A stretch of DNA of 64,000 nucleotides, taken from assembly GCA_026770705.1 (NCBI GenBank), contig JANJGN010000052.1, positions 1,116,001 through 1,180,000 on the forward strand. Reading direction: 5' to 3'. A model generated the notes under the pieces. It did not search any database, was not told the origin of the DNA, and worked only from the letters and a program-made list of their open reading frames with translations. The position numbers and the translations under genes are program-made. This DNA comes from Isurus oxyrinchus. Its lineage: Eukaryota. The stretch's first letter is position 1. Every line of letters begins with the position of its first letter. Shown piece by piece: positions 742-37,737 of this stretch.

Positions 742-1110
742 CAGAAACGTGAAGCCGGGTTACAGGGTAATAGTTATGGCTCGGACCATTGTCAAATTCT
801 ATTCTGAAAAAATAAGGTCCCGCATCTTCCCGTCTGATGCTGTTTATAATCAGGGAACAGTCGCCATCTTTCAGGTCTCCAGACAGCCGGGTCCGATGGC
901 GGAACCGTGGTAACTCGTGACTGTGATCCTTGGAGTGAAAGGCAATGGGAGCCCGCAATTTGTATTTCTTAATATTTAACCAGATTCCGACTTGTCGTTT
1001 GTTTTCAAAATATGCTGGATAACTGTAATGACATGGAATCTGTACACACGAACCTTCCTGCGCTGTCACCTCTCGTGGAGTGTCACCTTTCCACTCTTGT
1101 AACAGTCCAA
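742..1110 (-). CDS. Siglec-like gene A, V-set (sialic-acid-binding) Ig exon; gene continues beyond the left edge of the window
   Basis: ctccccag/TTGG acceptor and TCTG/gtaagt donor; 369 nt, phase 1-1. Siglec hallmarks: GSCVQIPC, DCSL, GPYFFRIEF with the essential Arg. Confidence 0.9.
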
Positions 1111-2029
1111 CTGGGGAGAGAAATATCAATATTTAACCCTGGATCCTCATTGTTTAAGGAATCTCTGGATCTTCATTGTTTAATGAATCTCTTTGGATCC
1201 TCATTGCCTAAGGGATTATTTCTGATCCAAACCCCATATTGTTGTATTGTTGATTCCAATGCAGCATTGTAGACTGACTTGTCCCCAAGCTCAGCACTGA
1301 CCCTACTCCAGCAGACACTGTGAAACACACTAACAAAGCGCCTCTAGCCTGAGCTCTGCATGTGTCGAGAGAAAGACAAATATACAAACTGAATATTAAC
1401 ACCTTTACACACAGACAGCTTTACCTTCCTTCTCTCTTTCAGTTATCTTGCTCCCTTATTGAAGTATCTAGCAAGGTGAGAATGGACAGGAAGTGTGACA
1501 CTGAACAGCCTGTCTATTCTAGGAGCTGCTGTGTTGTCTTCATGGGAAATTCTGACTAAAATCAGCAATAGACACTAATTTCAGGCCATTGCTGTCAGAG
1601 TCCTAGCCACAAGATAGACTTCATCCCCTGAATTTTGTGTCCAATTTTATACTCAAACTTTCACCTCCGCACACACCCACCCCGACCCCACAAGTCACTC
1701 GCTGACCTACACTGGCTCCCAGTCCAGCAACACCTCGATGTGATTATTTTCACACTTGATTTCCAATCCCTCCATCACTCCGCTCCACTCCCTGTCTCTG
1801 TAACCTACTTCAAACCTACAACCCTCTGTGATCTCTGCACTCCTCCAATTCTGCTGTCAGACAGGGAGTCAGTGTATATCAGTGAGCACAGGGGTGATGG
1901 GTGAATGGGACTTGGTGTGAGTTTGTACACTGGCTCACTGCTGAATCAGTTGCCAATCACAGCTCAATAAGAATGATCTTTTACGAAGACTATTAACCAT
2001 CAATTTGCCCGAGCTGACGATGATATTAC

Positions 2030-2069
2030 CTTGGAGAAGTGACAGGAGGCAGTAATATTTCCCGATCAT
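2030..2069 (-). CDS. Gene A leader (signal peptide) exon, MIGKYYCLLSLLQ
   Basis: ATG in a short exon ending CAAG/gtaata; phase 1 joins the V exon in frame (LLQ-VGLLQEW); conserved across the gene copies. Confidence 0.8.
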
Positions 2070-2519
2070 CGTCCACTCCCAGATATTTCAACAGCTTCTC
2101 ACTCTCAAACTCTGAAAGAGAAAGGAGTTAATGAGACCTCACCTCTTGTCCGACAGCTCTCGAGGGATCAGAACTGCTTTTAGACAATGTCTTCACAGAC
2201 TAATTTGATTCTCTGTGGGATGATAGGTGTTCTGCAGAGAGTTACAAGGCTTTAAGAAAGAAAAACAATGAAGGACTTGCATTTCTATATCGCCTTTCAC
2301 CTGCTCAGGACACCCCAAAGCTCATGTCCCTGCTCTTCCCTCATCCCTTGAGCTAGAAAGATGTTCTGTACAACAGACTTGAGCCTCACACCCAGATCTC
2401 AATAATCAGTAGAAATCTTTCAAAGGCATCAATCATTGGAATCTGTCTTTATAAAGTCACAACATCAACAAAGGACGGTGTTGGTCGTGGAAGTGAATTC
2501 CAATCGTTCCGTTACTTAC

Positions 2520-2660: not shown

Positions 2661-2857
2661 GTAAAGGAGTGAATAAACAGGCATTAGGAATGAGTGCGTA
2701 ATTTCACAATGCGTTACAACAGAATCAAACTGTTGGCAATTCATCATGACTCTGTGATCTTTCTGTTTGCTGTTTGTTAACTTCAAATTTCTACCATGGC
2801 TCTGAGGGTTTATATTTAAAAATGCTGTTGGAGGATAAATACTAAGCATGTTCTGCA

Positions 2858-3520
2858 CTGTCAGAGGGTCAGTATTGTTGGAGTGCTACCCTGTCAGAGG
2901 GTCAGTACTGAGGGAGTGCTGCACTGTTGGCGCGTCAGTATTGAGGTGTGCTGCACTGATGGAGGATAAGCAGCGAGGGAGTGCTGCTCTGTTTGAGGGA
3001 CAGCTGTGAGGGAGTTCTGCACTGTCAGAGTGTTGGCACTGAGGGAGTGCTGCACTGTCGGCCGGTCAGAACTGAGGTAGTGCTGCACTGTTGGACGGTC
3101 TAAACTGAGAGAGTGCTGCACCCGTTGGAGGGTCTGAACTGAGGGAGTGCTGCACTGCTGGAGGGTCTAAACTGAGGGAGTGCTGCAGTGTCGGAAGGTC
3201 TGAACTGAGGGAGTGCTGCACTGTTGGAAGGTATAAACTGAGGGATTGCTGCACTGTAGGAGGTTCTAAACTGACGGAGTGCTGCACTGTCGGAAGGTCT
3301 GAACTGAGGGAGTGCTGCACTGCTGGAGGGTCTGAACTGAGGGAGTGCTGCACTGTTGGAGGGTCTAAACTGAGGGAGTGCTGCACTGTTGGAGGGTCTG
3401 AACTGAGGGAGTGCTGCACTGCTGGAGGGTCTAAACTGAGGGAGTGCTGCACTGTTGGAGGGTCTAAACTGAGGGAGTGCTGCACTGTTGGAGGGTCTGA
3501 ACAGAGGGATTGCTGCACTG
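2858..3520. repeat. 33-bp tandem satellite (ACAGTGCAGCACTCCCTCAGTACTGACCCTCCG family)
   Basis: Directly visible 33-nt periodicity; the same family occurs in at least nine arrays in the window. Confidence 0.95.
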
Positions 3521-4224
3521 TCTAAAATACATTGCGCAAATTGCACAAAATTGCATCTGATGTCAGTGTCTGATGCACACATGAAGTTCATGCATTTATC
3601 AGGAATATTTCTCTCTCTTTCTGAGCAGCAAGGCAGCTTTGATATCACACCACCTACTGGCAATTGTGTGCAGCTGCAATGTGACGTGTTTACATTGAAA
3701 ATTTCCATTATAAAGATGGGCACAGGAATTCATCTGACTGGAAAAAGTGACAACATGAAGTAATGTCTTTGAGCCAAGAATCTGGCAGCAAAATAAGAAT
3801 TTTAATCCATAAATATCTACAGAACAGGCTGAGCATTTTAATCACTTGAGTAAATCAATGTAATTTTATTCATAACCCAAATGCTTCTTACAATCTATCG
3901 CAGCATGAAAAAGGTGCAGCATTCAGAAAGCACATTCCAATCAGAGAACAGAGTTTAGCAACGTCACATTTCTGTTCATTCCTATTCGACCATGTTGGCT
4001 GCACACAGCCAGACAATGCCGTGGTTATGATGTGTCCACACAGCAGGACTGGGGAGCACCAGGTATAAGGAAAAGTTTCAGCTTGCTGAGGAGAAGAAGG
4101 AGAATCTCTCGTTCCAGGTTTCTCTCCGTACATTAAGAAGCAGGCATGCCGATGTTTCATTGCACTCTGTCTGCTGATGGGAGACAGCTTGGAAATTGTT
4201 GTTTGTGCTGATGGAAAGAATAAG

Positions 4225-4947: not shown

Positions 4948-5087
4948 TCAAACAGTCTGTCGACTTCCTTTCACTGTTTGTCTCTCCCAGACACAGACTC
5001 CAGCGATAGTGATAACCACAGCCACAAGGAATATCACAGCTCGTATTCCCAGGATCAGGATCACGTGCAGAATCTCTCCTCCACTGT
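4948..5087 (-). CDS. Gene B terminal exon: activating-type TM with Arg plus short tail, (Y)SGGEILHVILILGIRAVIFLVAVVITIAGVCVWERQTVKGSRQTV*
   Basis: ttctctag/AC acceptor in phase 1, matching the preceding Ig exon; long hydrophobic run containing one Arg; stop after 12 cytoplasmic residues; same peptide at 28719-28858. This frame is not in the ORF track. Confidence 0.85.
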
Positions 5088-5469
5088 CTAGAGAACACAC
5101 AGAAAGAAATCATCACTGACTCTCCGCTTTCAATCTCTCACTCTGGCTGAACAATCAAGCTTCATATCACTGCAACATTTGCTGTAATATTGGCCCATCC
5201 ACTGGGATTCAATGTGGAATGAATGTTTTCATTGTAAACACTCTAAGAGTGGACAATCGGAACTTTCCCCTTAGCGTGGAACATTGGTGAGAATGGATCA
5301 TTGTGCTGTTGGACTCCCTGTCCAATGTTTCTCTCCATCGCTGTGTACAGGATTGTGCTGTAGAAAATTCTGGAAACGTTTAGTGCAGGGTGGAAATCCA
5401 TCTCGGACGCGTGTGCAAATCAGGCAGGATCGAGATGGACTCCCCCATGAACTTACACCCCCCGCTTAA

Positions 5470-5850
5470 TAAACAGTTCCAATCTTTACCCAGAGAGAGG
5501 GGAGAATGTGGAACTCGCTCCCACTGGGAGTGGTCGAGGTGAACAGTATCAATGTATTTAAGGGGCAGGAGGGTCGGTAACCAGAGGGACACAGATTGAT
5601 GAACCGGAGGGGGAGATGAGGAGAATTTGTTTTGACAGAGCGAGTTGTTGTGATCTGGAAGGTGCTGCCTGAAAGGGCAGTGGAAGCAGATTCAACAGGA
5701 ACTTTCAAATGGGAAATTGGATAAACACTTGAAGGAAGAAGATGGGGGCAAAGTGGAGTGGTGGTTAGTGGATCTGATTGGATAGAACATTGAAAGACCT
5801 GGCACAGGCACAATGGGCTGAATGGCCTCCTCCTGTGCTGTATCATTCTC
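5470..5850 (+). mobile_element. CR1-type LINE 3' tail fragments
   Basis: Degenerate RT C-terminus (FVLTERVVVIWKVLPERAVEA-like) and gggctgaatggcctcctcctgtgctg tail; mirrored at 27960-28335. Confidence 0.7.
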
Positions 5851-6752
5851 CGCTTCCATGATCTCTCCCCCAGTTAGTAACCACTCCAGATCCCTCTTGA
5901 AGGTGACAGAGAGACAGCAACCACCACACCCACTGACAGCACATTCCCGAGGATCCCTACTCTCTGGGAAAAGATGAACTCCCCAACATCCAGCCTATTC
6001 CTGCTTCCTGGAGAGTGTAAACCCTTCCCAGAGCGCGGATGAACCTTTCAATAAACTGTATCATCAAATCTCCCGTTTGATATATGTTAATTTCGATGAA
6101 CTTACACCATATGTAGCAAATTGTGAAGTGAAGTTGGCTGAAAAGCTGGGAGGTGCAAGCTTAAGCACCACAGTGCCACCACTGGTGGGAGGATGTAAAG
6201 ACAGTGTGACGTTTACATAGGATGCCCCCATTATAAACAGGGTCATTGGACATGATGGCAAAACTGAACACTGGAAAGGTGAGAAAAAGAAGTAAGCTCT
6301 TCACTAACAGGAAATCCCTTCCTAAACTTCCTTATCTCTCCCTTTCTCTCAGATACACAAAAAATTTGACACAGGGACTTATAAGGAGGAGTTAGGACAG
6401 GCAAGAGTTACGGATTAGGAAGCTTCTTAAAGGAGGAGAGAGATACACAGAGAGGTGGGGAGTATCAGTTGGAATCTTTGTGCATGTGAGTTTCTGGAAT
6501 AGACTTTGTAATTTGGATATTCTTCGATAAATATGAATGGGAACACATATCCCAGAATCCAGGAGAACTCTCCAGTGCAGTACTGAGTTTGTGTGTGAGT
6601 GTGTCTTTCTGTGTGCTCATGAGTGTGGGATTGTGTGTGTGCATGCACTTTGGGTCTGTACATTTGTGAGTGCTTGTGTGTGTGTGCGTGGGAGAGCATC
6701 TGAGTATATGTGTTCGGAGATGAGAGAAATTTTAAAGTCTGTGTACACTCAC

Positions 6753-7034
6753 ATTCCACAGTAATGGTTAGGAACCCCTCCACTGCTCCATGTTCATTCT
6801 CTGCCACACACTGATATTCTCCAGTATCCCTGGATGTAACGTGAGGAATCACCAACCACAGCTCATTGTTGGAACTTGTTCTGTTCATTGGGACATTAAG
6901 ATGTCGCCACATCAGGTTAGAAGCTGGGAAGCTCTCGACAGAGCAGATTATCACTGTAGAATTCCCCTCAATTATATTGATCGATGAAGCGTTAATCATA
7001 TCTGGAGAAGTAATTGAGAGATTCCGTGGTGCGT
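6753..7034 (-). CDS. Gene B third Ig (C2/I-type) exon
   Basis: ttttag/ACGC acceptor and GAAT/gtgagt donor; 282 nt; ICSVESFPASNLMW...DTGEYQCVAENEHG. Confidence 0.9.
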
Positions 7035-7149
7035 CTAAAAACAAATACAGATCAGTTAACTTACACTGACTGTGAAGCACTTTGAAAGACACTGAGAATG
7101 TGAAAGGTGTGATGTCAATGTAGGTTCTTTCACCACATAGTCCGTAATC

Positions 7150-7510
7150 CAGGCAGACACTTCAGTTCAGTATTGAGGGCGTGCTGCACTGTCAGAGGGT
7201 CAGTACTGAGGGAGTGCTGCACTGTCAGAGAGTCAGTACTGAGGGAGTGCTGCACTGCCAGAGGTTCAGTGCTGAGGGAGTGCTGCACTGTCAGAGGGTC
7301 AGTCCTGAGGGAGTGCAGCACTGTAGGAGGGACAGTACTGTGGGAGTGCTGCACTGTAGGAGGGTTACTGCTGAGGTAAAACTGCACAGTCAGAGCGTCA
7401 GTTCTGATTGACCAGTGCAATGTTGGAGGAGCACTACTGAGGGATCATTATACTATTAGAGAGACAGTAATGAGGGAGTGCTGCACTGTAGAAGGGTCAG
7501 TGCTGAGGAG
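7150..7510. repeat. 33-bp satellite array
   Basis: Tandem 33-nt units. Confidence 0.9.
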
Positions 7511-7545
7511 GCAAAAACGCTGTTATGTGTGTACTATAGGCCTCC

Positions 7546-8057
7546 TGTGATAATGTGGAGTGCCAGGTACCTTTAAGAGAATACAAGTGGATAAACCATG
7601 TGACAGTACTGACCAATCACTGGACAGTGTGGGCCACTGGTTAACTGTAAGTCTAGAGCTGGAGGTGGCTGTGGGAGCAGGCAAGGATTTAGTGCTCTGC
7701 CCTCTGTTACAATAAATAATCAGCTTGTTCTAATGTCGGTCTCTCTTGGTTATTGATAGCGAGCATCAGCTAAGAATAACTCAACAGGTCTGGCAGCATC
7801 GGGGGAGAAGAAAAGAGTTGATGTTTCGAGTCCTCATGACCCTTTGACAGAACTGAGGTCATGAGGACTCGAAACGTCAACACTTTTCTTCTCCGCCGAT
7901 GCTGCCAGACCTGCTGAGTTTTTCCAGGTAATTCTGTTTTTGTTTTGGATTTCCAGCATCCGCAGTTTTTTTGTTTTTATCAACTAACAAGTGTATGTGA
8001 AGGAGTGCAATTCGAATTTAATCAACCAGTGAACTCATAGACTCAAGATATAAAACC
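7546..8057 (+). mobile_element. Solo LTR of a Gypsy-type element, inserted in a CR1 endonuclease region and itself interrupted by a Penelope-like hairpin
   Basis: Homologous to both LTRs of the element at 37738-39725; splits CR1 sequence tactataggcctcc...aaacagtcagggagag. Confidence 0.7.
7765..7980. mobile_element. Penelope-like inverted-repeat (hairpin) remnant
   Basis: Inverted arms caggtctggcagcatc / gatgctgccagacctg; related copies at 18700-18915 and 59736-59870; degenerate hammerhead core in the arms; absent from the paralogous LTR in gene E. Confidence 0.65.
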
Positions 8058-8059
8058 AA

Positions 8060-9765
8060 CAAACAGTCAGGGAGAGATGGACAATCCAACATGTGATCAC
8101 ATTTCAGAGATGTGTAAGAATAACAAAGCAGTAATACTCAGGGATTTTAGCTACCCAAATATTAACTGGGACAGCTTTAGTGAGCAAGGTAGGGAGGGAG
8201 AAAAATTCTGAAGTTGCATCCAGGAGAAGATTTTTAGCCTGTGCATAGAAAGCTCAACAAGGGAGGGGACAGTTCTGGACCTAATATATGGAAAAGCGCC
8301 GGGGAAGTTGGAAAGCGTATCAGTAGGGGAGATAGTGACTGGAACTCAATTGGATTTAGGACAGTTATGGAGAAGGATAAGTTTGTGCTGGGAATAAAAA
8401 TTCTAAACTGGGGAAAGGCTAATTTTACTAAGATGAGATATGATTGGGCCCAAGTGGACTGGGAGAAGCTCTTTGCAGATAAAACTGTGTCAGAGCAGTG
8501 GGAGGCATTCAAGGAGGGAATAGCGAGAGTACAGAGCAGATATCTTCCTGCAAAGACAAAGAGGGAGACCAAGTCTGGAGAACCCTGGAAGACAAGGAAC
8601 ATAAAGGTTTGGATTGAGAAAAAAGAGAAGCTTATGGCAGATACTGAGGGCTCAATACAGCAGAGTCCCTAGAGGAGTATAAATAGTGCAGAGGGGAACT
8701 GAAAAAGGACATTAGGAAAGATAAGAGAGTGCATGAGAAAGCACTGGTGGGTAGAATAAAGCAAAACCCAGAGGGGTTTTTTAAATATGTAAAGAGCAGG
8801 AGAATAACTCGGGAAAGAGTGGGGCTGATTAGGGACCATCGAGGTAATGTGTGTGTGGACCTGGAAGACGTGGGTACAGTCCTCAATGAATACTTTGCAT
8901 CAGTCTTCGCAATGGAAAAGGATGATGCAGGTATAACATCAGGGTGGAGGACAGTGAAATATGAGAGGAAATTAACACAGAGAGAGGAGGTACTAGTGGG
9001 TTTAGCGGCCTGAAAAGTGGATAAATCCACAAGCCCAGATGAGATGAATCCAAAGCTGTTGAGGGAGGCAAGGGGAGAGATATCAGGGGCCCTGGCAGTA
9101 ATTTTCAAATCCTCTCTGGCCACAGGTGAGGTGCCAGAGGACTGCAGGATGGCTAATGTTGTCCCATTATTAAAAAAGGGAGGAAGGGATAGATCAGGAA
9201 ATTACAGGCCAGTCAGTCTAACCTCGGTGGTGGGGAAGTTACTAGTAAGAATTCTGAAGGACAGAATGAATCTGCACTGGGAGAGACAAGGATTAATCTG
9301 GGATATTCAGCATGGATTTGTTAAGGGAAGGTCATGTTTGACAAACCTGATCAAATCTTTTGAGGAGGTAACCAGGAGTGTTGATGAGAGTAATGCCTTT
9401 GATGTGGTCGACATGGGCTGAGGAAGGCATTTGATAAGGTGCCTCTTGGCAGAGAGGCCAAGAAAGTAAGAGCCCATGGGATCCAAGGCAAAGTGGCACG
9501 TTGGATCCAATATTGGCTGAGGCAGGAAGCAGAGGGTGATGGTGGAGGGATGTTTCTGTGACTGGATGTCTGTTTCCAGTGGGGTTCCACAGGGCTCAGT
9601 GCTGGGGCACTTGCTGTTTGTGGTGTATATAAATGAATTGGACTTATATAAAGGGGGAACGATCAAGACGCAAATGGAATTCAACCTGGAAATATGTGAG
9701 GTGATGCACTTGGGGAGGGAGTTGCTGACCAGCATGGACATGATGGGCTAAATGGCCTCCTTCTG
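8060..9765 (+). mobile_element. CR1-type LINE ORF2 remnant (endonuclease-RT), disrupted
   Basis: GNYRPVSLTSVVGKLL, QHGFVKGRSCLTNL, SGVPQGSVLG motifs with stops and frameshifts; near-identical inverted copy at 36035-37735. Confidence 0.92.
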
Positions 9766-9962
9766 TCTATGTGTCTATGAGTCTATGAGTCCATGATGCA
9801 CTGTCGGAGAGTCAGTATTAAGGATGTACTGCCTGTCAGGGGTCACTTTTTACCAGTGAAACACCAATGGTTTGTTGGTAAACAAAGTGCTGTATGTGGG
9901 AGCTTGCTGTGCACATTTGATACTATTCCAGCTAACGTAGAATGAAGGATGTCCATACTTAC

Positions 9963-10259
9963 ATTGCACCGTTAGTACGAGGGTCTGCTCCGATGAAACA
10001 GATGGATATCTCACTCTGCAGCTGAGAGTGTGTCCGTGGTGTTTGAGTGATGGGATCAGGGTCAGAACAGAAGTATAGGTCAGAGTGACACCATGCTGAG
10101 TTACAGTGTTTGAGACTGATCCACGTACGTCAGTGGGAGTGTCCCAGGTTAAGACAGGTGCTGCTGTTCCATTGCACGTTGTGTTGAAGGTGCAGCTTAC
10201 ATCCACACGCTTTCCTGCAATAATTTCAGCAGGGAATATCGTGGGTTTATCTGTGAAAT
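9963..10259 (-). CDS. Gene B second Ig (C2-set) exon
   Basis: gttag/ATTTCACAG acceptor and CAAT/gtaagt donor; 297 nt; DFTDKP...SCTFNTTC (extra Cys for the Siglec inter-domain disulfide)...LSCRVRY. Confidence 0.9.
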
Positions 10260-11574
10260 CTAACACACAGAGAATGGATCCTTTTAGAGAAATATAACGT
10301 GAAGCATCAGTTCAAATAGAAACCACAGTCCCACAAGAGAAAGCACTTTTACAAGGATGATATCAGAACTGAGAGGTTACAATGATCATTAAAGAATTGT
10401 CTATTTTTACACTTGTTGAATCTCTGTCACTCAGATTAATACACTCTCACTCAGTGACCCTTGATTTGACCAGACTGGGTGAGGGTGGAGGAACAGCTCA
10501 CAGCTCGGGGAGAACAGACTCAGCATTTGGAAAAGGATATAGAGACACTGGAGAGGGTGGTAAAAAGCTTCACAAGGATGATCTCAGCAATGTGAGGCTT
10601 TACCTATCAGGAGAGGATGTACAGGCTGGGTCTCTGTTCTCTTGAACAGAGAAGGTTGAGGGGTGACCTCATTTGACCTTTGAAGTAATGAAAGGTTTTG
10701 ATCGAGTAGACATGGAGAGAGTGTTTCCACTCCTCACAATGAACAAAACCAGAGGCTGACAATATAACATCCTCACTAATAAATCCAATGGGGAATTCAG
10801 GAGAAACTTCTTTACCCAGAGAGTGGGGAGAATGTGTGCTTCAAGAATCACTTCATTGACTGTGAATTGATTTAGGATCGTCCTGAGGTGGTGAAAGGCG
10901 CTATGGAAATGCGAGACTTGGTTTTGTATTTTGAAAGCAGGTTTCCAAGGATGAGATGGGAACTGAGAGGTCACAACAATCAGCAGCAACTTTCCTATTT
11001 TCAAACTTGGTGGGGAATGTGTCACTGAGCTGAATACACTTTCACTCCCAGACCCTTGAATTGCCAACACTGGGGTGTGGGTGATGGAGCAGCCCACAGC
11101 TCATGGAACCCTGGCTCATCATTCTCTCAAAGATCTGGGTCACTGATCCCATTGCTCTCTGTGGGAGCTTCCTGTGAACAAACTCACTGCCACGTTAGAC
11201 AGTGACTATACTTCAAGAATTTCTTCATTTTCTGTGAAATGATTTGAAGTTTGCTGAGGTGGTGTAAGGCGCTATAGGAATGCACATCCTTCTTTTGTCA
11301 AATTGTTAGACTTTTAAAAAGCATTAGGTAGACTGATGGGAGTGGATAACCTGATAACATTGATGGACACAGTCAATACATTTAATCATTGATATTAAAG
11401 TGAGTATTAGAGGTTGCTTTAGGACTGAACTGGAAGTTATCACCCGGTTATTGAGAATCAGACAGTGTGTTATAATAAGCTGTGTTTTGTGTTAATATGT
11501 AAACGTCACAGTTTGTGTTATTTCCCATTGAGTGTTGAATGTGAATTGTTGAGTAATTATAACACAGCACTTAC

Positions 11575-11943
11575 CAGAAACGTGAAGCTGGGTTACAGGG
11601 TAATAGTTATGGCTCGGACCATTGTCAAATTCTATTCTGAAAAAATAAGGTCCTTCATCGTCCCGTCTGATGTTGTTTATAATCAGGGAACAGTCGCCAT
11701 CTTTCAGGTCTCCAGACAGCCGGGTCCGATGGCGGAACCGTGGTAACTCGTGACTGTGATCCTTGGAGTGAAAGGCAATGGGAGCCCAGGGAATCTGTTC
11801 CTCATTATTAAACCAGACTCCACCTCGCGGTTGGTTTTCCAGACACGATGGATAACTGTAATGACATGGAATCTGTACACACGAACCTTCCTGCGCTGTC
11901 ACCTCTCGTGGAGTTTCACCTTTCCACTCTTGTGACAGTCCAA
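11575..11943 (-). CDS. Gene B V-set Ig exon
   Basis: ccacag/TTGG acceptor, gtaagt donor; 369 nt open; YFFRIE Arg present; additional Cys in YPSCLE. Confidence 0.88.
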
Positions 11944-12808
11944 CTGTGGAGAGAAATATCAATATTTAACCCTGGATCCTCATTGTCTAAGGGATTATTT
12001 CTGATCCAAACCCCATATTGTTGTATTGTTGATTCCGATGCAGCATTGTAGACTGACTTGTCCCCAAGCTCAGCACTGACCCTACTCCAGCAGAGACTGT
12101 GAAACACACTAACAAAGCGCCTCTAGCTTGAGCTCTGCCTGTGTCAAGAGCAAAGACAAATATACAAACTGAATATTAACACCTTTACACACGGACAGCT
12201 TTACCTTCCTTCTCTCTTTCAGTTATCTTGCTCCCTTATTGAAGTTTCTAGCATGGTGAGAATGGACAGGAAGTGTGACACTGAACAGCCTGTCTATTCT
12301 GGGAGCTGCTGTGTTGTCTTCATGGGAAATTCTGACTAAAATCAGCAAAAGACACTAATTTCAGGCCATTGCTGTCAGAGTCCTCGCCACAAGATAGACT
12401 TCATCCCCTGAATTTTGTGTCCAATTTTCCACTCAAGCTTTCACCTCCGCACACACCCACCCCGACCCCACAAGTCACTCGCTGACCTACACTGGCTCCC
12501 AGTCCAACAACACCTCGATGTGATTATTTTCACACTTGATTTCCAATCCCTCCATCACTCCGCTCCACTCCCTGTCTCTGTAACCTACTCAAACCTACAA
12601 CCCTCTGTGATCTCTGCACTCCCCCAATTCTGCTGTCAGACAGGGAGTCAGTGTATATCAGGGAGCACAGGGGTGATGGGTGAATGGGACTTGGTGTGAG
12701 TTTGTGCACTGGGTCACTGCTGAATTGGTTCCGAATCACAGCTCAATAAGAATGATCTTTTACGAAGACTATTAACCATAAATCTGTCTGAGCTGACGAT
12801 GATATTAC

Positions 12809-12848
12809 CTTGGAGAAGTGACAGGAGGCAGTAATATTTCCCAATTAT
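12809..12848 (-). pseudogene. Gene B leader exon with lost start codon (ATG>ATA)
   Basis: Reads GGACA ATA ATT GGG AAA TAT TAC where paralogs read ATG ATC/ATT; in-frame TAA upstream; donor intact. Confidence 0.75.
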
Positions 12849-13297
12849 TGTCCACTCCCAGATATTCCTTTAGCTTCTGACTCTCAAACTCTGAAAGAGA
12901 AAGGAGTTAATGAGACCTCACCTCTTGTCCGACAGCTCTCGAGAGATCAGAACTGCTTTTAGACAATGTCCTCTGAGACTAATTTGGTTCTCTGTGGGAT
13001 GACAGGTGCTCTGCAGAGAGTTAAAAAGCTTTAAAAAAATAAATCAATGAAGGACTTGCATTTCTATATCGCCTTTCACCACCTCAGGATGTCCCAAAGC
13101 TCATGTCCCTGCTCTTCCATCATCCCTTGAGCTAGAAAGATGTTCTGTACAACAGACTTGAGCCTCACACCCAGATCTCAATAATCAGTAGAAATCTTTC
13201 AAAGGCATCAATCATTGGAATCTGTCTTTATAAAGTCACAACATCAACAAAGGACGGTGTTGGTGGTGGAAGTGAATTCCAATCGTTCCGTTACTTA

Positions 13298-13440
13298 CCC
13301 AGGACCTGTCTGACTGCTCGCCTGGGGAGGAACTGCTCACACGCTCTGCTTGGGCTGAATGACCTCTTCCTGTGCTGCTCCCTCTGTGTATTTAATGAGA
13401 AAGGGTTGATGTGTCACTGTGAGACAAAATGAGGAAGTTG
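13298..13440 (-). promoter_or_regulatory. Gene B putative promoter and non-coding first exon
   Basis: Conserved module; AATGAGGAAGT PU.1-type site at about 13428-13438; gtaagt donor. Confidence 0.6.
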
Positions 13441-14005: not shown

Positions 14006-17000
14006 CTGGTGATGAGGTGAAAAACAAGGAAGAAAAATCAAGGAATGAGAGCAAGGGAACTGAAATCCGGCTGTGCCTCACGCAGTGATTATAAATATAA
14101 TTTCCATCCTAATAACCGAAGCAGTCCCCTCGAAGAATGCTGCAGTTTGGAAGAGTTGATCCTTTCGACCCAACGGTGGGCGATTGGTCTCATTATGGTG
14201 AACTCCTTGCGTTCTTTTTCCAAGTGAATGACATTGATGGGGAGGAGAAGAGGCGAGCGACCCTCTTATCCACGTGTGGGAGTAAGACTTAGGGATTGAT
14301 GCGAACTTTAATGTCACCCGGTGCCATGGGTTCAAAAAGTTTAGATGATATAGTGAACCTTGTGAAGATTCCTTCCCAGCCCCAGCCCTCGGTAACGATG
14401 CAACGGTCCAAATTTAACTCAAGAAATAGAGTCCCAGGGGAGGCAGCTGCATGTTATGTGGAAAGTCTGAAAGAGTTAATAGGACATTGTGAGTTTGGTA
14501 AATCTATAAATGATATGCTGAGAGATCAACTGGTGTGCAGTATAAATGAAGATTCGATTCAGAAGAGATTACTGTCTGAAACAGATTTGGATATTCAGAA
14601 GGCTCTGGGAATAGCGCTGGCTATGGAAAGAGCAGTGAGGGACTCGAAAAACATATGGAGAGTGCAAAATGTCACCGTCCTCATGTTGGGTGAGGAGCCT
14701 CAGCCAAGAAGTGCGGGAAAATGTACAGCTCTGATGAGAAGCGGGAAACCTCCACCACTAGCAGCAAATAAAAAGGAATGACTTAGCAGAGAAAACATGG
14801 AATAATGGGAACAGAGGTGAAGCAGACAACATCGTAGTGAATGGAACTTTAAAAAAATCAATTGTTTTTACTGTCATCGAAACAGAGAGCCCATGAGAGA
14901 TTGCAAGGATAGAATCAGGCAGAGTTTCAACCAAGAGAGAAAACCCTGTGAGATCCATAACATAGAAGAGCCTGAAGTAACAGATTCAGATAGTTATTCA
15001 TTGTATAATTTAAAGGTAGGAAGAACAGAGCCAATCTATGTAACAGTGAGGGTGAATGATAGAGCTCTCAGAATGGGGGTGGACACAGGAGCTAACACTA
15101 CGCTAATTGGTGAGCATACTTTCAAATACTGGAATCATGGGGAAAGTCAATTAAATTTGGAAGAAACAGATGACTAACTGAAAACTTACACGTGAGAAGA
15201 CATTCAAGCCAAAGACATAAGCAGGGTTATTATAAAGTATGGAAGTCAATCAGTAAAATGACCCTTGATGATGGGAGCTGGTGAGGGACCAAGCCTCCTT
15301 GGACGAAACTGGCTGAAAGATATTAAGCTGGATTGGTCTGAGATCTTCCAACTGAGAGCCAGTGGGCTACCTGAGCTACTACAAAAATACATCTCAGTTT
15401 TCCAAGATGAACTCGGGGAGATCCAGGGGCTGCAAGCAAAAATTCATGTGGATCCAGACTCTACCCCTCTGATTTATGAAGGCACGGCCAGTACCTTATG
15501 CAATGTGGGAAAAGGCAGATGCTGAATTGGGCAGGTTCTAGAAACTGGGAGTGATACAATCTGTGCAGTCCTCAGAATGGGCAGCACCAATAGTCCCTGT
15601 ACCTGAGCCTGGCCAAAGTGTTTGTGGAGATGACAAGAATTGACTGGAACGGCCTACACGGAGCTGATATGAGCCATGCTTATCAACAATTGGAGTTCGA
15701 GAAGGCCTCCCAGAAGTTTGTCACAATTAATACACACAAAGGGTTGTATCAATAAACCGGTTTGCCTTTCAGAGTCTCCTCTGCAGGATCACAGAGTCTT
15801 AATGGCACAGCAGGAGGCCATTCAGCCCATCGTGTCTGTCCCAGCTCTCCAAATGAGCATCATGACCTAGTGTCATTGCCCTGCCTTTCCCCATGCCCCT
15901 GCACCTTTTCTCTATCCAAATAATCATCTAATGCCCTCCTGAATGCCTCGATTGAACCTGCCTCCACAACACTTCCAGGCCGTGCATTCCAGGCCCAAAA
16001 CTTAGTTGTGTGAAAAAGTTTTTTCTTACGTCACATTTGCAACATCAGTCATGTTAAATGTCAGCGGGAAGGTGGAAAGGAGGCCAGGAAGACAGGAAAC
16101 TGGACATGACTGGCATAGTCATGACAGGAAGCTGACCGTAGGAGAGACGGTATATGTGAAGGATTTTATAGAAGGGCCAAAGTGGTCACCGGGTGAAATA
16201 AATGCAGCGATTGGAACTCTTTCTCACCATGTGAAAGTGGAAGACCGAGTCATATGGAGACATGTGGGTCATATAAGGAGGAGAGAAACAAAGTACCAAG
16301 AAACAATCCCACCAGTCTTCACGGCTGCGTCTATGTCTCCTGTTGAAAGACCTCAGCTGAGAACAGATGTGTCTGAAGGGTCCGTTGTACCTGCAAGAGT
16401 TGAGGAAACAGGTTTGCAGGTGTCCACCGAAGAAGCTGGTGTTGGGACAACATCAGAAAAGGAGACTCCTGACAAAGCATCTGAAGCTGTGGATCTGAGA
16501 CGTTCCAGACGCATAAGGAAACCCCCCAGAAAGACTGAATTTGTAAATTACTGATCTGTGTAAATCATTTGATACTTTGAGAAAATGGTAAAAGTAAGTG
16601 TAAAATGTGTTTCTGAGTAAAGGGGGAGGGTGGTGGTAATCTGATGTGTGATGTACCTTTAAGAAGAAGGTTACAATGGAAGATAACATGAGCTCAGTGT
16701 TGTGGTGTGTTCTCAGAATCAACCTCAGGCCTGGCTAAAAACAGAACTCTACCCATTACAGGGAAACCATCTTTTTTGTTCACAGAGTTAGTCACGTACA
16801 CATTGGGTTATTTAAATTCAAATCTTGTCAGTACATAATCACATAATAAGCATATGTTCCCAGTCCCAGGTACATATCTGCTCCTTACCCAAGCAAGAAC
16901 TGTTTATCTCGTTCTAGCCTGGTGCCGTTTGCCTTTACCTTATCTGTTTACCCTCAGCATCTCTTTATGTCTCTTCTCGAGTTAATCCCTCGTGATCTTC

Positions 17001-17340: not shown

Positions 17341-17470
17341 ACTCGTGACCAGCATCCAACAGTATCAATAATTAATGTATGTATTGTGGGTGGAATTTTC
17401 GATTTGGATCAATAATACTAAACACTGATCACTCTGATTGTCACTCTGATCATTTCTGTTTCTATTACAG

Positions 17471-17587
17471 CAGAAAGATGAGAAGGATCTGGAAATGAAA
17501 TCTAACCGCGGAGTCAATCCTGATACAGATGATGATCTTTACGCAAACTGTGAATTTGCTGAGGATTCTGTTTATGGGAATTTATAA
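17471..17587 (+). other. Orphan terminal cytoplasmic exon of an immune receptor, QKDEKDLEMKSNRGVNPDTDDDLYANCEFAEDSVYGNL*
   Basis: Pyrimidine tract and tattacag acceptor; 38 codons to TAA; two acidic-context tyrosine motifs, C-terminal SVYGNL fits the ITIM consensus; AATAAA at 18361. No upstream partner exon recognised. Confidence 0.55.
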
Positions 17588-20387: not shown

Positions 20388-20528
20388 CACTTCCTCATTT
20401 TGACTCACAGTGACACATGCACCCTTTTTAATTAAACACAAATAGGGAGCAGCACAGGAAGAGGTCATTCAGCCCAAGCAGAGCGTATGGGCAGTTCCTC
20501 CCCAGGCGAGCAGTCGGACAGGTCCTGG
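20388..20528 (+). promoter_or_regulatory. Gene C putative promoter and non-coding first exon
   Basis: CACTTCCTCATT (PU.1-type) at 20388, adjacent TGACTCA (AP-1-type), GG/gtaagt donor. Confidence 0.6.
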
Positions 20529-21500: not shown

Positions 21501-21619
21501 ATTGTCTAAAAGCAGTTCTGATCTCTGGAGAGCTGTCGGACAAGAGGTGAGGTCTCATTAACTCCTTTCTCTTTCACAGCTTGAGAGTGAGAAGCTGATG
21601 AAATATCTGGGAATGGACA

Positions 21620-21651
21620 ATGATCTTACTTCCTCCTGTCAGTTCTCCAAG
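21620..21651 (+). pseudogene. Gene C broken leader exon
   Basis: 8-nt deletion after ATGATC (frameshift) and donor GT>CT (caag/ctaata). Confidence 0.8.
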
Positions 21652-22747: not shown

Positions 22748-23113
22748 TTGGACTGTCACAAGAGTGGAAAGGTGACACTCCATGAGAGGTGACAGCGCAG
22801 GAATATTCGTGTGTACAGATTCCATGTCATTACAGTTATCCATCGTGTCTGGAAAACCAACCACAAATTGGAATCTGGTTTAATGACAAAGTCCTGATAA
22901 GATTCTTTATAGCCTTTCACTCCAAGGATCACAGTCACGAGTTACCACTGTTCCGGCATCGGACCCGGCTGTCTGGAGACCTGAAAGATGGTGACTGTTC
23001 ACTGATTATAAACAACATCAGATGGGAAGATGCAGGACCTTATTTTTTCAGAATAAAATTTGACAATGGTCCAAGCCATAACTATTACCCTGTAACCCAG
23101 CTTCAAGTTTCTG
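22748..23113 (+). pseudogene. Gene C V-set exon with premature stop
   Basis: CGA>TGA at 22783-22785 in frame; otherwise a Siglec V domain (YFFRIK); 366 nt. Confidence 0.88.
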
Positions 23114-24486: not shown

Positions 24487-24783
24487 ATTTCACAGATAAA
24501 CCCACGATATTCCCTGCTGAAATTATTGCAGGAAAGCCTGTGGATGTAAGCTGCACCTTCGACACAACGTGCAATGGAACAGCAGCACCTGTCTTAACCT
24601 GGGACACTCCCACTGACGTACCTGGATCAGTCTCAAACACTGTAACTCAGCATGGTGTCTCTCTGACCTATACTTCTGTTCTGACCCTGATCCCATCACT
24701 CAAACACCACGGACACACTCTCAGCTGCAGAGTGAGATATCCATCTGTTTCATCGGAGCGGACCCTCGTACTAACTGTGCAAG
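24487..24783 (+). pseudogene. Gene C second Ig (C2-set) exon, open but within a disabled gene
   Basis: 297 nt, intact splice sites, near-identical to the B/E/F exons; no third-Ig exon follows. Confidence 0.8.
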
Positions 24784-24994
24784 GTAAGATCGGACACCCT
24801 TCATTATACATTCGCTGGAACAGTCAAGATTACGCTCAGCAGGATCCCATAGAAAGGTATTCTGATGACAATCAGATAATCTGTCTTTGAGGGAAAATGG
24901 TGACCAGAATACAATTAATAACCGTTTCTGAACATTAACACAGCGGCTTTTATGTCCAGCCAAGGGGCTGATAGAGCAGAGCAGGAATCTCAAT

Positions 24995-25466
24995 GTACTC
25001 ACCCCCTGACAGTGCAGCACTCCCTCAGTACTGACCCTCTGAAAGTGCAGCACTCACTCAATACTGAACCTCTGACAGTACAACACTCCCTCAGTACTGA
25101 CCCTCCGACAGTGCAGCGCACTTTCAGTACTGAACCTCCAACAGTACAACACTCCCTCAGTACTGACCCTCCGACAGTGCGGCACTCCCTGAGGACTGTC
25201 CCACCGACAGTGCAGCACTCCATCAGTACTGACCCTCCAACAGCGCAACAATTCCTCAGTACTGTCCCTCTGACAGTGCAACACTCCCTCAAAACTGTCT
25301 CTCCGACAGATTAGCACTCCCTCGATACTGTCCCTCTGACAGTGTAGCACTCCCTCAGTACTGACCCTCCGACAGTGCTGCACTCCCTCAGTACTGTTCC
25401 TCTGACAGTGTAGCACTCCCTCAGTACTGACCCACTGACAGTGCAGCACTCCCTCAGTACTGACAC
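24995..25466. repeat. 33-bp satellite array
   Basis: Tandem 33-nt units. Confidence 0.95.
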
Positions 25467-25704
25467 TGGGGAATTTCAGTCTACTCTGTGGGGCAGGCAT
25501 CTGCTGAATGGGGTCTTGAACCCCACAAAATTCTAAAACATACTGACTCCCTGAGTTCGGGTGTGAAACCCACTGACCCACAGGAGAAACTCCTGGTCAA
25601 TGACTGTGCACCTGTGAGCAGAAATATCAACACAGGGTCAGGACACAAAGGATTAACAGTTCACCAACATCTCAAAACATGAGCTGCTCTGTCACTTTGA
25701 ACCA

Positions 25705-25844
25705 ACTTCCTCATTTTGTCTCAAAGTGACACATCCACCCTTTCTCATTAAACACACAGAGGGAGCAGCACAGGAAGAGGTCATTCAGCCCAAGCAGAGC
25801 GTGTGGGCAGTTCCTCCCCAGGCGAGCAGTCGGACAGGTCCTGG
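25705..25844 (+). promoter_or_regulatory. Gene D putative promoter and non-coding first exon
   Basis: ACTTCCTCATT at 25705; GG/gtaagt donor. Confidence 0.6.
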
Positions 25845-26297
25845 GTAAGTAACGGAACGATTGGAATTCACTTCCACCACCAACACCGTCCTTTGTTGAT
25901 GTTGTGACTTTATGAAGACAGATTCCAATGATTGATGCCTTTGAAAGATTTCCACTGATTATTGAGATCTGGGTGTGAGACTCAAGTCTGTTGTACAGAA
26001 CATCTTTCTAGCTCAAGGGATGAGGGAACTGTAGATACTTTGGGGTGTCCTGATGTGGTGAAAAGTGCTATAGAAATGCAAGTCCTTTGTTGTTTTTCAT
26101 TCTTAAAGCCTTGTAACTCTCTGCAGAACACCTATCATCCCACAGGGATGATTATTCTGTGAATTATTCTGTGAAGACATTGTCTAAAAGCAGTTCTGAT
26201 CTCTCGAGAGCTGTTGGACAAGAGGTGAGGTCTCATTAACTCCTTTCCCTTTCAGAGTTTCAGAGTGAGAAGCTGATGAAATATCTGGGAGTGGATA

Positions 26298-26337
26298 ATG
26301 ATTGGAAAATCTTACTTCCTCCTGTCACTTCTCCAAG
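26298..26337 (+). CDS. Gene D leader exon MIGKSYFLLSLLQ (intact)
   Basis: ATG, 40 nt, CAAG/gtaata donor. Confidence 0.65.
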
Positions 26338-28718: not shown

Positions 28719-28858
28719 ACAGTGGAGGAGAGATTCTGCACGTGATCCTGATCCTGGGAATACGAGCTGTGATATTCCTTGTGGCTGTGGTTATCACTAT
28801 CGCTGGAGTCTGTGTCTGGGAGAGACAAACAGTGAAAGGAAGTCGACAGACTGTTTGA
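28719..28858 (+). CDS. Activating-type TM/short-tail terminal exon of the C/D block
   Basis: Same peptide as 4948-5087, Arg in TM, intact acceptor; AATAAA at about 29928. Confidence 0.75.
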
Positions 28859-29575: not shown

Positions 29576-30269
29576 TATTCTTTCCATCAGCACAAACAGC
29601 AATTTCCAAGCGGACTCCCATCAGCAGACAGAGTGCAATGAAACATCGGCATGCCTGCTTCTTAATGTACGGAGAGAAACCTGGAACGAGAGATTCTCCT
29701 TCTTCTCCTCAGCAAGCTGAAACTTTTCCTTATACCTGGTGCTCCCCAGTCCTGCTGTGTGGACACATCATAACCACGGCATTGTCTGGCTGTGTGCAGC
29801 CAACATGGTCGAATAGGAATGAACAGAAATGTGACGTTGCTAAACTCTGTTCTCTGATTGGAATGTGCTTTCTGAATGCTGCACCTTTTTCATGCTGCGA
29901 TAGATTGTAAGAAGCATTTGTGTTATGAATAAAATTACATTGATTAACACAAGTGATTAAAATGCTCAGCCTGTTCTGTAGATATTTACACATAAAATTT
30001 CTCATTTTACTGCAAAATCTTGGCTCAAAGACATTACTTCATGTTGTGACGATTTTCCAATCATGTGAATTATTGTGCCCATCTTTATAATGGAAACTTC
30101 CCATGTAAACATGTCACATTGTAGTTAGGCACTCCTGCCATTGGGTGGTGTGATATCAAAGCTGCCTTGCTGCTCAGAAACAGCGAGAAATATTCCTGTT
30201 CTAAATTTGAAGTTAGTGAGACAAAGGCATTCGATGCAATTTTGTGAAACTTGTACAATGTTCTTTAGA

Positions 30270-32120
30270 TAGTGCAGCACTCCTTCACTACTGACCCTCC
30301 AACAGTGCAGCACTCCCTCAATACTGACCCTCTGACAGTGCAGCACTACCTCAGTACTGACCCTCCGACAGTGCAGCACTACCTCAGTACTGACCCTCCG
30401 ACAGTGCAGCACTACCTCAGTACTGACCCTCCGACAGTGCAGCACTCCCTCAGTTCTGACCCTCCAACAGTGCAGCACTCCCTCAGTACTGACCCTCTGA
30501 CAGCACAGCACTCCCTCAGTACTGACCCTCTGAATGTGCAGCACTCCCTCAGTACTGACCCTCTGACAGTGCAGCACTCCCTCAGTACTGTCCCTCTGAC
30601 AGTGCAGCACTCCCTCAGGAACAAGACTCTGACAGTGCAGCACTCCCTCAGTACTGACCCTCCGACAGTGCAGCACTCCCTCAGTACTGACCCTCCGACA
30701 GTGCAGCACTCCCTCAGTACTGACCCTCCAACAGTGCAGCACTCCCTCAGTACTGACCATACAAGAGTGCGACACTACCTCAGTATTGACACACCAAGTG
30801 TCCAGCACTTCCTCAATACTGACCCTCTGACAGTGCAGCACTCCCTCAGTACTGACACACCAAGAGTGCAGCACTCCCTCAGTACTGACCCTCCGACAGT
30901 GCAGCACTCCCTCAGTACTGACCCTATGACAGTGCAGCACTACCTCAGTACTAACCCTCCGACAGTGCAGCACTACCTCAGTTCTGACCCTCCAACAGTG
31001 CAGCACTCCCTCAGTACTGACCCTCTGACAGCGCAGCACTCCCTCAGTACTGACCCTCTGACAGTGCAGCACTCCCTCAGTACTGTCCCTCTGACAGTGC
31101 AGCACTCCCTCAGGAACAAGACTCTGACAGTGCAGCACTCCCTCAGTACTGACCCTCCGACAGGGCAGCACTCCTCAGAACTGTCCCTCCAAGAGTGCAG
31201 CACTCCTCAGAACTGTCCCTCCAAGAGTGCAGCACTACCTCAGTACTGAGCCTCCGACAGTGCAGCATTCCCTCTGTACTGACCCTCTGACAGTGCAGCA
31301 CTACCTCAGTACGTACCCTCCGACAGTGCAGCACTCCCTCAGTACTGACCCTCTGAATGTGCAGCACTCCCTCAGTACTGACCCTCTGACAGTGCAGCAC
31401 TCCCTCAGTACTGTCCCTCTGACAGTGCAGCACTCCCTCAGGAACAAGACTCTGACAGTGCAGCATTCCCTCAGTACTGACCCTCCGACAGGGCAGCACT
31501 CCTCAGAACTGTCCCTCCAAGAGTGCAGCACTACCTCAGTACTGAGCCTCCGACAGTGCAGCATTCCCTCTGTACTGACCCTCTGACAGTGCAGCACTAC
31601 CTCAGTGCTAACCCTCCGACAGTGCAGCACTCCCTCAGTACTGACCCTCTGAATGTGCAGCACTCCCTCAGTACTGACCTTCTGACAGTGCAGCACTCCC
31701 TCAGTACTGACCTTCTGACAGTGCAGCACTCCCTCAGTACTGACCCTCTGACAGTGCAGCACTCCCTCAGTACTGACCCTCTGACAGTGCAGCACTCCCT
31801 CAGTACTGACCCTCTGACAGTGCAGCACTCCCTCAGTACTGACCCTCTGACAGTGCAGCACTCCCTCAGTACTGACCCTCTGACAGTGCAGCACTCCCTC
31901 AGTACTGACCCTCTGACAGTGCAGCACTCCCTCAGTACTGACCCTCTGACAGTGCAGCACTCCCTCAGTACTGACCCTCTGACAGTGCAGCACGCCCTCA
32001 GGAACAATACACCAATACTCTACAGTGCAGAACTCCTTTGCTGCTGACCCTCCAACAGAGCAGCACTTCTTCAGACCTGATCCTGCGACAGAGCAGCACC
32101 CCATCAGTACTGACCCCCTG
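30270..32120. repeat. Large 33-bp satellite array with higher-order internal duplications
   Basis: About 55 units; recurring variant units (ggaacaagactct, ctgaatgtgcagc); expanded relative to the paralogous array at 2858-3520. Confidence 0.97.
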
Positions 32121-32331
32121 ATGGTGCCGCATTTGCTCAGTATTTACCCTGCAACAGCACAATTAAATATTAACCCTCGGAGCCATGGTAAAAAACTGAC
32201 GTTACCAAATAGCAAACAACAGAAGAGAAGCATCACAGAATCACAATAAATAGGTCAAAAGTGTGATTATGTTGTAACGCTTTGTGGTATGAAGCACTCA
32301 TTCCTACTGCCTGTTTACTCACTCCTTTGCT

Positions 32332-32471
32332 ACTTCCTCATTTTGTCTCACAGTGACACATCCACCCTTTCTAATTAAACACACAGAGGGAGCAGCACAG
32401 GAAGAGGTCATTCAGCCCAAGCAGAGCGTGTGGGCAGTTCCTCCCCAGGCGAACAGTCGGACAGGTCCTGG
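32332..32471 (+). promoter_or_regulatory. Gene E putative promoter and non-coding first exon
   Basis: ACTTCCTCATT at 32332; CAGGAAG; GG/gtaagt donor. Confidence 0.6.
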
Positions 32472-32920
32472 GTAAGTAACGGAACGATTGGAATTCACTT
32501 CCACCACCAACACCGTCCTTTGTTGATGTTGTGACTTTATAAAGACAGATTCCAATGATTGATGCCTTTGAAAGATTTCTACTGATTATTGAGATCTGGG
32601 TGTGAGACTCAAGTCTGTTGTACAGAACATCTTTCTAGCTCAAGAGATGAGGGAAGAGCAGGGACATGAGCTTTGGGGTGTCCTGAGCAGGTGAAAGGTG
32701 ATATAGAAATGCAAGTCCTTCATTGTTTTTCTTTTTCAAGCCTTGTAACTCTCTGCAGAGCACCTATCATCCCACAGAGAATCAAATTAATCTGTGAAGA
32801 CATTGTCTAAAAGCAGTTCTGATCCCTCGAGAGCTGTCGGACAAGAGGTGAGGTCTCATTAACTCCTTTCTCTTTCACAGCTTGAGAGTGAGAAGCTGTT
32901 GAAATATCTGGGAGTGGACA

Positions 32921-32960
32921 ATGATCGGGAAATATTACTGCCTCCTGTCACTTCTCCAAG
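32921..32960 (+). CDS. Gene E leader exon MIGKYYCLLSLLQ
   Basis: Exon 32881-32960 (tttcacag acceptor, gtaata donor); ATG at 32921 with A at -3. Confidence 0.82.
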
Positions 32961-33853: not shown

Positions 33854-34222
33854 TTGGACTGTCACAAGAGTGGAAAGGTGACACTCCACGAGAGGTGACA
33901 GCGCAGGAAGGTTCGTGTGTACAGATTCGGTGTCACTACAGTTATCCAGCATATTTTGAAAACAAACGACAAGTCGGAATCTGGTTAAATAATGAGAAAT
34001 ACAAATTCTGGCCTCCCATTGCCTTTCACTCCAAGGATCACAGTCACGAGTTACCACGGTTCCACCATCGGACCCGGCTGTCTGGAGACCTGAAAGATGG
34101 CGACTGTTCCCTGATTATAAACAACATCAGACGGGAAGATGCAGGACCTTATTATTTCAGAATAGAATTTGACAATGGTCCGAGCCATAACTATTACCCT
34201 GTAACCCAGCTTCACGTTTCTG
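33854..34222 (+). CDS. Gene E V-set Ig exon (Siglec)
   Basis: 369 nt, intact splice sites; GSCVQIRC, DCSL, YYFRIE. Confidence 0.92.
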
Positions 34223-37735: not shown

Positions 37736-37737
37736 GT

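Follow-up and report, generated by a model that had tools for sequence, protein, structure and literature searches.

Gene organization of the locus

The window (the whole stretch of DNA analysed here, 64 000 nucleotides long) carries genes of a receptor family built from Ig-type exons, and one of these, on the minus strand, ends in the exon at 4948–5087. All exons upstream of it (Ig3, Ig2, V, leader and a probable 5′ untranslated exon) have AG/GT ends and compatible phases. The features of the window are as follows.

742–2111, minus strand: leader with ATG and V exon of the next Arg-anchor gene, which runs beyond the window (intact path to the anchor at C52:1110079)
4948–5087, minus strand: terminal transmembrane exon, coding part to the stop (from splice joints and homologues)
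5041–5043, minus strand: Arg codon CGA of the transmembrane helix (Arg kept in 21 of 22 sampled copies)
5088–5383, minus strand: end of the intron, with the AG acceptor at 5089–5088; homologous to the intron before the SLAM-like anchor exon on C21 (DNA alignment)
6753–7034, minus strand: Ig3, second C2-type exon, phase 1-1, open (joint to the transmembrane exon in one contig)
9963–10259, minus strand: Ig2, C2-set exon with the extra Cys of Siglecs, phase 1-1, open (joints 10259/11575, 9964/7035 and 9964/5088)
11575–11943, minus strand: Siglec V-set exon, open, with the sialic-acid-binding Arg codon at 11638–11636 (PDB alignment)
12809–12890, minus strand: leader exon, with ATA at the start-codon position 12848–12846
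13299–13383, minus strand: upstream exon, probably untranslated; the same sequence is the first tail exon of the third tail class
21578–21651, 22748–23113, about 24487–24783 and 26256–26337: parts of the second-copy gene (a broken leader, V with a stop, Ig2 and a lone leader, respectively)
28719–28858, plus strand: second Arg transmembrane exon, in a disabled gene
32879–49407, plus strand: partner-type gene with leader, V, Ig2, Ig3, an anchor without a basic residue (40907–41003) and three tail cassettes
55328–63678, plus strand: leader, V, Ig2 and tandem Ig3 exons of a long partner-type gene, which ends beyond the window in the uncharged anchor at C52:1186143

Entered at 5087 in phase 1, behind an acceptor preceded by a polypyrimidine tract, the anchor exon encodes a short stalk, a hydrophobic helix with an arginine and a 12-residue tail followed by a TGA stop (4950–4948). 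This agrees with the donors at 6753 and 9963, where the two Ig exons upstream end in phase 1. The tail is free of tyrosines and has neither an ITIM nor an ITAM. The peptide, its coordinates and the presence of a second copy at 28719–28858 on the plus strand are as an earlier note on this DNA had them, the two copies being 100% identical over 140 nt, and the transmembrane prediction proposed there places the arginine within the best 19-, 21- and 23-residue hydropathy windows as well as within the modelled helix of a white-shark relative (P0032). The same note had remarked that the plain ORF list shows a different frame; this is indeed so, because a second frame runs through the exon without a stop and includes an ATG a short way upstream. 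The word ‘hidden’, by which the exon had been described, is nevertheless too strong, as the exon is part of RefSeq models from the white shark, from catsharks and from bamboo sharks, and only the ORF track misses it. Read-through into a longer tail, using a GT located 22 nt past the stop, was considered and rejected: the stop lies at the identical position in all 22 sampled copies (one of which has an additional, earlier stop in the tail), and the models from other sharks end there. No joint from this GT occurs among the joints listed in the contigs described next.

Splicing of the family

Evidence for splicing comes from contigs of four runs that are probably RNA (their nature is a guess, none being recorded as RNA) and applies to the family as a whole, not being assignable to the gene ending at 4948, hereafter copy 1. 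In these runs, which represent one sample, the leader is joined to V in three of four, V to Ig2 in all four, Ig2 to Ig3 in two and Ig2 directly to the anchor exon in all four, the shorter sides of the last joint measuring 22–45 nt. The family's acceptor, which the earlier note had allowed might never be used, is thus spliced into, from Ig2 in all four runs and from Ig3 in one run of a related species. The junction of Ig3 with the transmembrane exon, on which that note had placed its emphasis, does exist, having been found in a single contig (one of four runs, related species; shorter side 152 nt, with a 1-nt deletion in the anchor exon), but it is not the main form. The commoner joint from Ig2 fits the finding that 15 of the 22 sampled Arg genes contain only a truncated Ig3. 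In the same kind of contigs, the leader donor at 12809 is also joined back to the acceptor at 13383, which may represent a circle or a tandem copy.

The ectodomain is of the Siglec type

The top 17 PDB sequence matches of the V exon are Siglec-5, -8, -7, -10, CD33, MAG and sialoadhesin (E-values from 2e-15 to 8e-12), and its F-strand arginine, aligned with that of Siglec-5 and -8, is retained in copy 1. Siglecs are characterized by a B–E intra-sheet pair of cysteines in the V domain and by extra cysteines in V and the first C2 domain that form an inter-domain bond. Cysteines that might form such bonds are present in the V exon at positions aligned with Siglec-5, and Ig2 has the extra one. The predicted structure of the white-shark two-Ig protein P0032 (pLDDT 85, helix at residues 228–258) has CD33 as its best fold match (E-value 1e-19).

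The V domains are of a kind that would be expected to bind sialylated glycans. Among the 55 open V exons sampled in C52:700001–1960000 the essential arginine is kept in 45. The other ten have Thr (six), Ser (three) or Gly (one) in its place; they are mostly the first V of multi-V genes, with CC′ loops rich in Trp and Arg, and may bind non-sialic ligands.

Relatives in other sharks and conservation of the arginine

The V exon has 116 homologues among longer proteins, all the named ones coming from sharks and rays, and the closest (91–94% identity) belong to the white and the basking shark, which makes a lamniform the probable source of the genome. Eight of these 116 shark and ray proteins end in the anchor segment, and a protein search with the anchor exon itself gave nine proteins. 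Compared with 1.84 billion representative sequences, the anchor exon had ten matches, nine of them from sharks; P0133, one of the ten, proved to be a repeat artefact and was dropped. The arginine is invariant in all 14 aligned rows, which come from three orders (Lamniformes, Carcharhiniformes and Orectolobiformes) and differ at other places in the helix; the core LGI-R-A is kept in the three orders and also on unrelated ectodomains, the rest of the helix drifting. Skate-type short-tailed relatives (P0102, P0103) have Leu at the position of the arginine, in the same register. Intact open models of the Arg class exist in other sharks (P0032, P0043, P0074).

RefSeq models of sharks called CD33-like or Siglec-12/13/14-like (e.g. 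XP_041037190.1 from the white shark) share the architecture and the terminal exon, the latter with 76–96% identity, their names being automatic only. Our literature search, which was largely one of non-subscription journals, found no paper on the anchor class, shark paired Siglecs, the array or the exon; the available text of a whale-shark paper has Siglecs in one passing mention (PMC8455134).

A large array with a paired design

Genome-wide, a 25-nt motif that spans the Arg codon occurs 212 times without a mismatch, 64 of these copies lying on the window's 4.17-Mb contig, and 229 times when up to two mismatches are allowed (control, 0), at least one of the 229 being an exon of the SLAM type discussed below. 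For the uncharged anchor there are at least 150 matches genome-wide (338 candidates), and for the V exon 1066 candidates, of which 150 were scored. Arg anchors, uncharged anchors and V exons share one set of 16 contigs, and some of these contigs may be allelic to each other.

The composition of the array was resolved in a sample of 1.26 Mb (C52:700001–1960000), which contains 22 anchors of the Arg class (21 with Arg, one with Gln) and 19 uncharged anchors whose downstream tail exons carry LYAN(I/P/T) and TEYAQI motifs; ten more anchors belong to a third, likewise uncharged class. Inhibitory-type partners with shared V domains are interleaved with the Arg genes in the same cluster; that they would inhibit is suggested by their tyrosine motifs. 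An intact path from leader through V and Ig2 to the anchor is found in six of 22 Arg genes, 15 of 19 uncharged Tyr-motif genes and six of ten third-class genes; three, three and four genes, respectively, have no leader within range, and 13 of the 22 Arg genes are broken. One intact Arg gene is the immediate neighbour of copy 1, starting at 2111; another has its end at C52:1643020.

Full V exons number 67 in this sample, 55 of them open and 51 distinct, with variation concentrated in the BC, CC′ and FG loops. On a tree of 53 of these exons (two open ones with no assigned anchor being omitted) the three tail classes need 22 changes, compared with 22.9 when the labels are shuffled; heads and tails are thus mixed, as expected from recombination or conversion. 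Positive selection on the V loops is not indicated, pN/pS being below 1 in all regions and 0.67 overall (a crude estimate). Nor can the numerous identical copies serve as proof of selection on the anchor, because within the genome the exon (98.9% identity) is no more conserved than the adjoining intron (98.6–98.8%). CpG decay has affected the Arg codon in one of 22 copies and the other three CpGs in three, four and one of 22, numbers too small to be read either way.

The array genes differ in the number of their domains: an Arg-class gene at C52:1863703–1893670 has seven open tandem V exons, and up to eleven tandem Ig3 exons are present in others. Given these tandem exons, reach and valency should vary widely across the array.

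Several peculiarities concern the partner-type genes. In the one at 32879–49407 each of the three repeated tail cassettes ends in TEYAQI, while the first Tyr motif is not a canonical ITIM: the two-exon cassette stands three times in tandem (41721–49407, plus strand), and its last exons have LYANP or LYANT instead of the ITIM-like LYANI, with TEYAQI kept. Such alternative last exons could tune inhibition. The anchor helix of the same gene (40907–41003, plus strand) has a Glu, a feature of three of the 19 sampled copies and also of the white-shark protein P0049; among the relatives from sawsharks and skates, several carry Glu or Asp elsewhere in the helix. A direct pairing of the Arg class with such Glu-bearing partners is unlikely, the two charges sitting at different depths.

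State of the two copies in the window

Although the family is evidently spliced and widespread, the two copies in the window look disabled, and the implication of the earlier note that both make receptors goes too far. The leader of copy 1 has ATA at the start position, being the only one to do so among 48 full-length leaders of the 1.26-Mb sample, 44 of which have an in-frame ATG. No in-frame ATG follows until Ig3 in the three-Ig path, and there is none in the two-Ig path. Because the start ATG is lost, copy 1 (4948–12890) is probably a pseudogene, barring a base error or a non-AUG start. In copy 2 (28719) the leader has an 8-nt deletion and a dead donor, V has a stop, and Ig3 is absent.

A related anchor exon on a SLAM-like gene and possibly on others

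Two of the anchor-exon matches, P0132 and P0134 (the latter named SLAM family member 9-like), have ectodomains of the SLAM/CD2 type. A corresponding gene exists in this genome, at C21:89446588, where a SLAM-like C2 exon is followed by a homologous anchor exon. The DNA of this copy is 68% identical to the window over 437 nt (window 5383–4965), about 300 nt of which belong to the intron; over the ILGIRAVIF core the Siglec and the SLAM-type exon agree in 27 bases in a row. The window gene itself is not a SLAM; what it shares with the SLAM/CD2 family is the anchor exon and the adjoining intron only. The neighbour of the Arg-anchor gene on C21 is SLAM-like too and combines an uncharged anchor with the motif TIYDEI. 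This SLAM-like pair spans C21:89408057–89447636, and another SLAM-like V exon lies at about 89456000. The SLAM-type copy may be dead as well, because it has a stop in the V exon and a Glu in the helix.

Automatic gene models from carpet sharks put the anchor exon also on CD22- and sialoadhesin-like ectodomains. In the present genome the CD22-like gene (C2274) is equipped with an uncharged anchor of its own, and the 16 kb that follow it contain no Arg exon, so the putative graft onto the CD22 type is known from the carpet-shark models only.

The adaptor question

The charged transmembrane residue of Siglec-14 is an arginine, and LILRA is a receptor with an N-terminal transmembrane arginine that uses FcR-gamma/CD3-zeta. 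The shark exon combines such a residue with a motif-free tail, and the arginine would dock with the paired aspartates of an adaptor that carries an ITAM, for which FcR-gamma or CD3-zeta is the most likely candidate. Anchor exons with an Asp were found in the genome for CD3-zeta (L031, on C18) and FcR-gamma (L032 and L033, on C1723 and C1648), and full-length shark FcR-gamma was retrieved from seven species (P0117–P0123). A 2014 survey, in its available text, reported FcR-gamma as missing from cartilaginous fish (PMC4016189). Shark FcR-gamma (P0117–P0123; C1723:88499–90520) has an extra exon, through which the usual ITAM is preceded by another ITAM-like pair, YEEI-x7-YHEL. The ITAM family PF02189, with which we looked for DAP12, had no match in the genome, and the controls were equally blank; this search is uninformative because ITAMs are split by an intron, as stated in the available part of PMC4536121.

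The position of the arginine along the helix is a further indication. It lies 19 residues from the first cytoplasmic charge, compared with 16 for the Asp of gamma/zeta, and the nearest polar residue upstream is eight positions away in most copies. In the SLAM-type copies and in three proteins of the white shark, a Gln or His stands five residues ahead of the arginine, which thereby becomes helix position 5. In the window copy the hydrophobic run begins seven residues before the arginine, and the best 21-residue hydropathy window makes it position 8. FcR-gamma or zeta is favoured because the 19-residue spacing and, in some copies, the polar residue five positions upstream place the arginine in the outer part of the helix. 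As far as the accessible portions of the relevant papers go, FcR-gamma prefers an Arg that lies close to where the helix begins at its N-terminal side, and DAP12 prefers a Lys in the middle, with flanking residues mattering little (PMC1440944), and CD89, NKp30 and NKp46 form the class with an N-terminal Arg, that of NKp46 working with zeta/gamma (PMC13107469). As to the identity of the adaptor, the sequences thus lean towards FcR-gamma/zeta, if not by much; DAP12 or DAP10 has a considerably smaller chance, and the absence of an adaptor, or a different one, is a little less probable again.

Interpretation and alternatives

We think it rather probable that the exon at 4948–5087 is the spliced anchor and short tail of the Arg class of a huge shark Siglec family, and that this class represents the likely activating half of a paired system, working through an ITAM adaptor that is most likely FcR-gamma/CD3-zeta, copy 1 itself being probably dead. 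The Arg class would be the activating half and the uncharged Tyr-motif genes the inhibitory-type half; surface expression, assembly with the adaptor and Syk-type signalling are further steps that we infer. The activating role proposed in the earlier note thus finds partial support at the level of the family, where the exon is used, the arginine is kept in 14 of 14 rows, the tail is free of motifs, partners are interleaved and anchors of FcR-gamma/CD3-zeta exist in the genome, but not for the two copies to which it had been applied.

The same activating role might be exerted via DAP12 or DAP10, as in mammalian activating Siglecs, which we hold to be unlikely. Activating Siglecs, namely Siglec-14, -15 and -16, are all described as DAP12-coupled in the available text of reviews (PMC6288428, PMC13358205, PMC13233462), where the transmembrane residue of Siglec-14 is given as ‘positively charged’ with no residue named, and position 8 of the arginine in the best hydrophobic window comes near the DAP12 Asp at helix position 9 (PMC1440944, as accessible). 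Registers are not strict either, CD89 tolerating a shift of its Arg by one turn (PMC13107469, as accessible). Against this route, DAP12 prefers Lys with type I receptors, a Lys-to-Arg change having lowered assembly of a KIR to 15% (PMC1440944, same portion), and the copies with a polar residue five before the arginine fix the latter in the outer third of the helix. For DAP10, Pfam PF07213 gave a lone weak match in the genome (E-value 0.4) with an internal stop, which is not convincing. It is less probable still that the Arg class signals not at all and serves as a tethered decoy or a receptor for adhesion or uptake, the arginine snorkelling to the outer headgroups or acting in quality control or dimer packing. 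The skate-type relatives P0102 and P0103, with Leu, demonstrate that the short tail exists without the arginine, and the 18 hydrophobic residues after it could nearly span the membrane alone; but four to seven hydrophobic residues precede the arginine, and the preservation of LGI-R-A, arginine included, in three orders and on unrelated ectodomains, in a helix that otherwise drifts, argues against mere tethering, as do the 27 identical core bases between Siglec and SLAM-type exons that are 68% identical overall. The least credible reading makes the Arg class largely decaying debris of duplication, carried along in segmental duplications of inhibitory genes. The 13 broken genes out of 22 and the three more that have no leader in range would agree with it, as would the disabled state of both window copies and the equal conservation of exon and intron; it is at odds with the intact path of six of 22 Arg genes, the spliced forms in probable-RNA contigs, the open models P0032, P0043 and P0074 and the persistence of the arginine across orders.

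Returning to the activating class with an ITAM adaptor, its closest parallels in design are the primate pairs Siglec-5/Siglec-14 and Siglec-11/Siglec-16, which, like the shark family, combine a Siglec V-set domain bearing the essential arginine with C2 domains and, according to the available text of PMC13358205 and PMC6288428, join near-identical heads to one of two endings, either an ITIM/ITSM tail or a short tail preceded by a transmembrane segment with a basic residue. Unlike the two pairs of humans, the shark has over 200 exons of the Arg-anchor type and no fewer than 150 uncharged anchors, with three tail classes, up to seven tandem V exons and an adaptor that is possibly FcR-gamma/zeta and not DAP12. 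The anchor exon has no match outside sharks among the 1.84 billion representatives, and the likeness to the primate pairs concerns their design. In the anchor itself the closest counterparts are CD89, NKp46, NKp30 and TCR-alpha, likewise type I proteins with an Arg in the outer half of the helix and a short tail (accessible portions of PMC1440944 and PMC13107469); the shark anchor differs from them in its Siglec ectodomain, in the longer hydrophobic run before the arginine in most copies and in that its assembly is predicted only.

The mechanism is of a textbook class; less ordinary are the size that the array has reached and the second use of the exon by a SLAM-like gene. Tentatively, and with more doubt than belief, we would go further and regard the Arg anchor exon as a portable ‘on-switch’, copied together with its upstream intron to unrelated Ig receptors (CD33-like Siglecs, SLAM-like and, in carpet sharks, CD22/sialoadhesin-like), each of which might thereby become the activating partner of an inhibitory gene, coupled to an FcR-gamma with two ITAM-like pairs; here it may have seeded hundreds of V-swapping germline paired Siglecs that would signal via FcR-gamma rather than DAP12. 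Known paired Siglecs are so far a few primate genes, and a shark array of hundreds of activating- and inhibitory-type members would push the paired design back to cartilaginous fish and would rank among the largest innate receptor clusters. It would offer a testable case of activating receptors arising when an anchor exon moves ready-made into a gene, and not through separate point mutations in every family, and it provides candidate clients for shark FcR-gamma. The single exon at 4948–5087 has a modest weight of its own, as public models for other sharks already include it and the gene copy to which it belongs is probably dead.

Further observations on the window

The upstream exon of copy 1 illustrates that one exon may have two roles, since the sequence that precedes nearly every leader is used again in the third tail class, as its first cytoplasmic exon; copies lie at 13299–13383 (minus strand), 2521–2604, 20444–20527, 25760–25843, 32387–32470 and 54838–54918. 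A solitary last exon of this third tail class, with two Tyr motifs and no same-strand gene upstream, is found at 17470–17587 (plus strand). Between the head-to-head genes, at about 14100–16500, there is a stretch resembling a decayed gag-pol region of a retrotransposon in opposite sense, recognized by eye. Arrays of a 33-bp minisatellite occur in introns and intergenic DNA (2825–3522, 24975–25467, 30268–32157, 39759–40098, 42839–43067, 45899–46160 and 48794–49022) and could seed unequal crossing-over.
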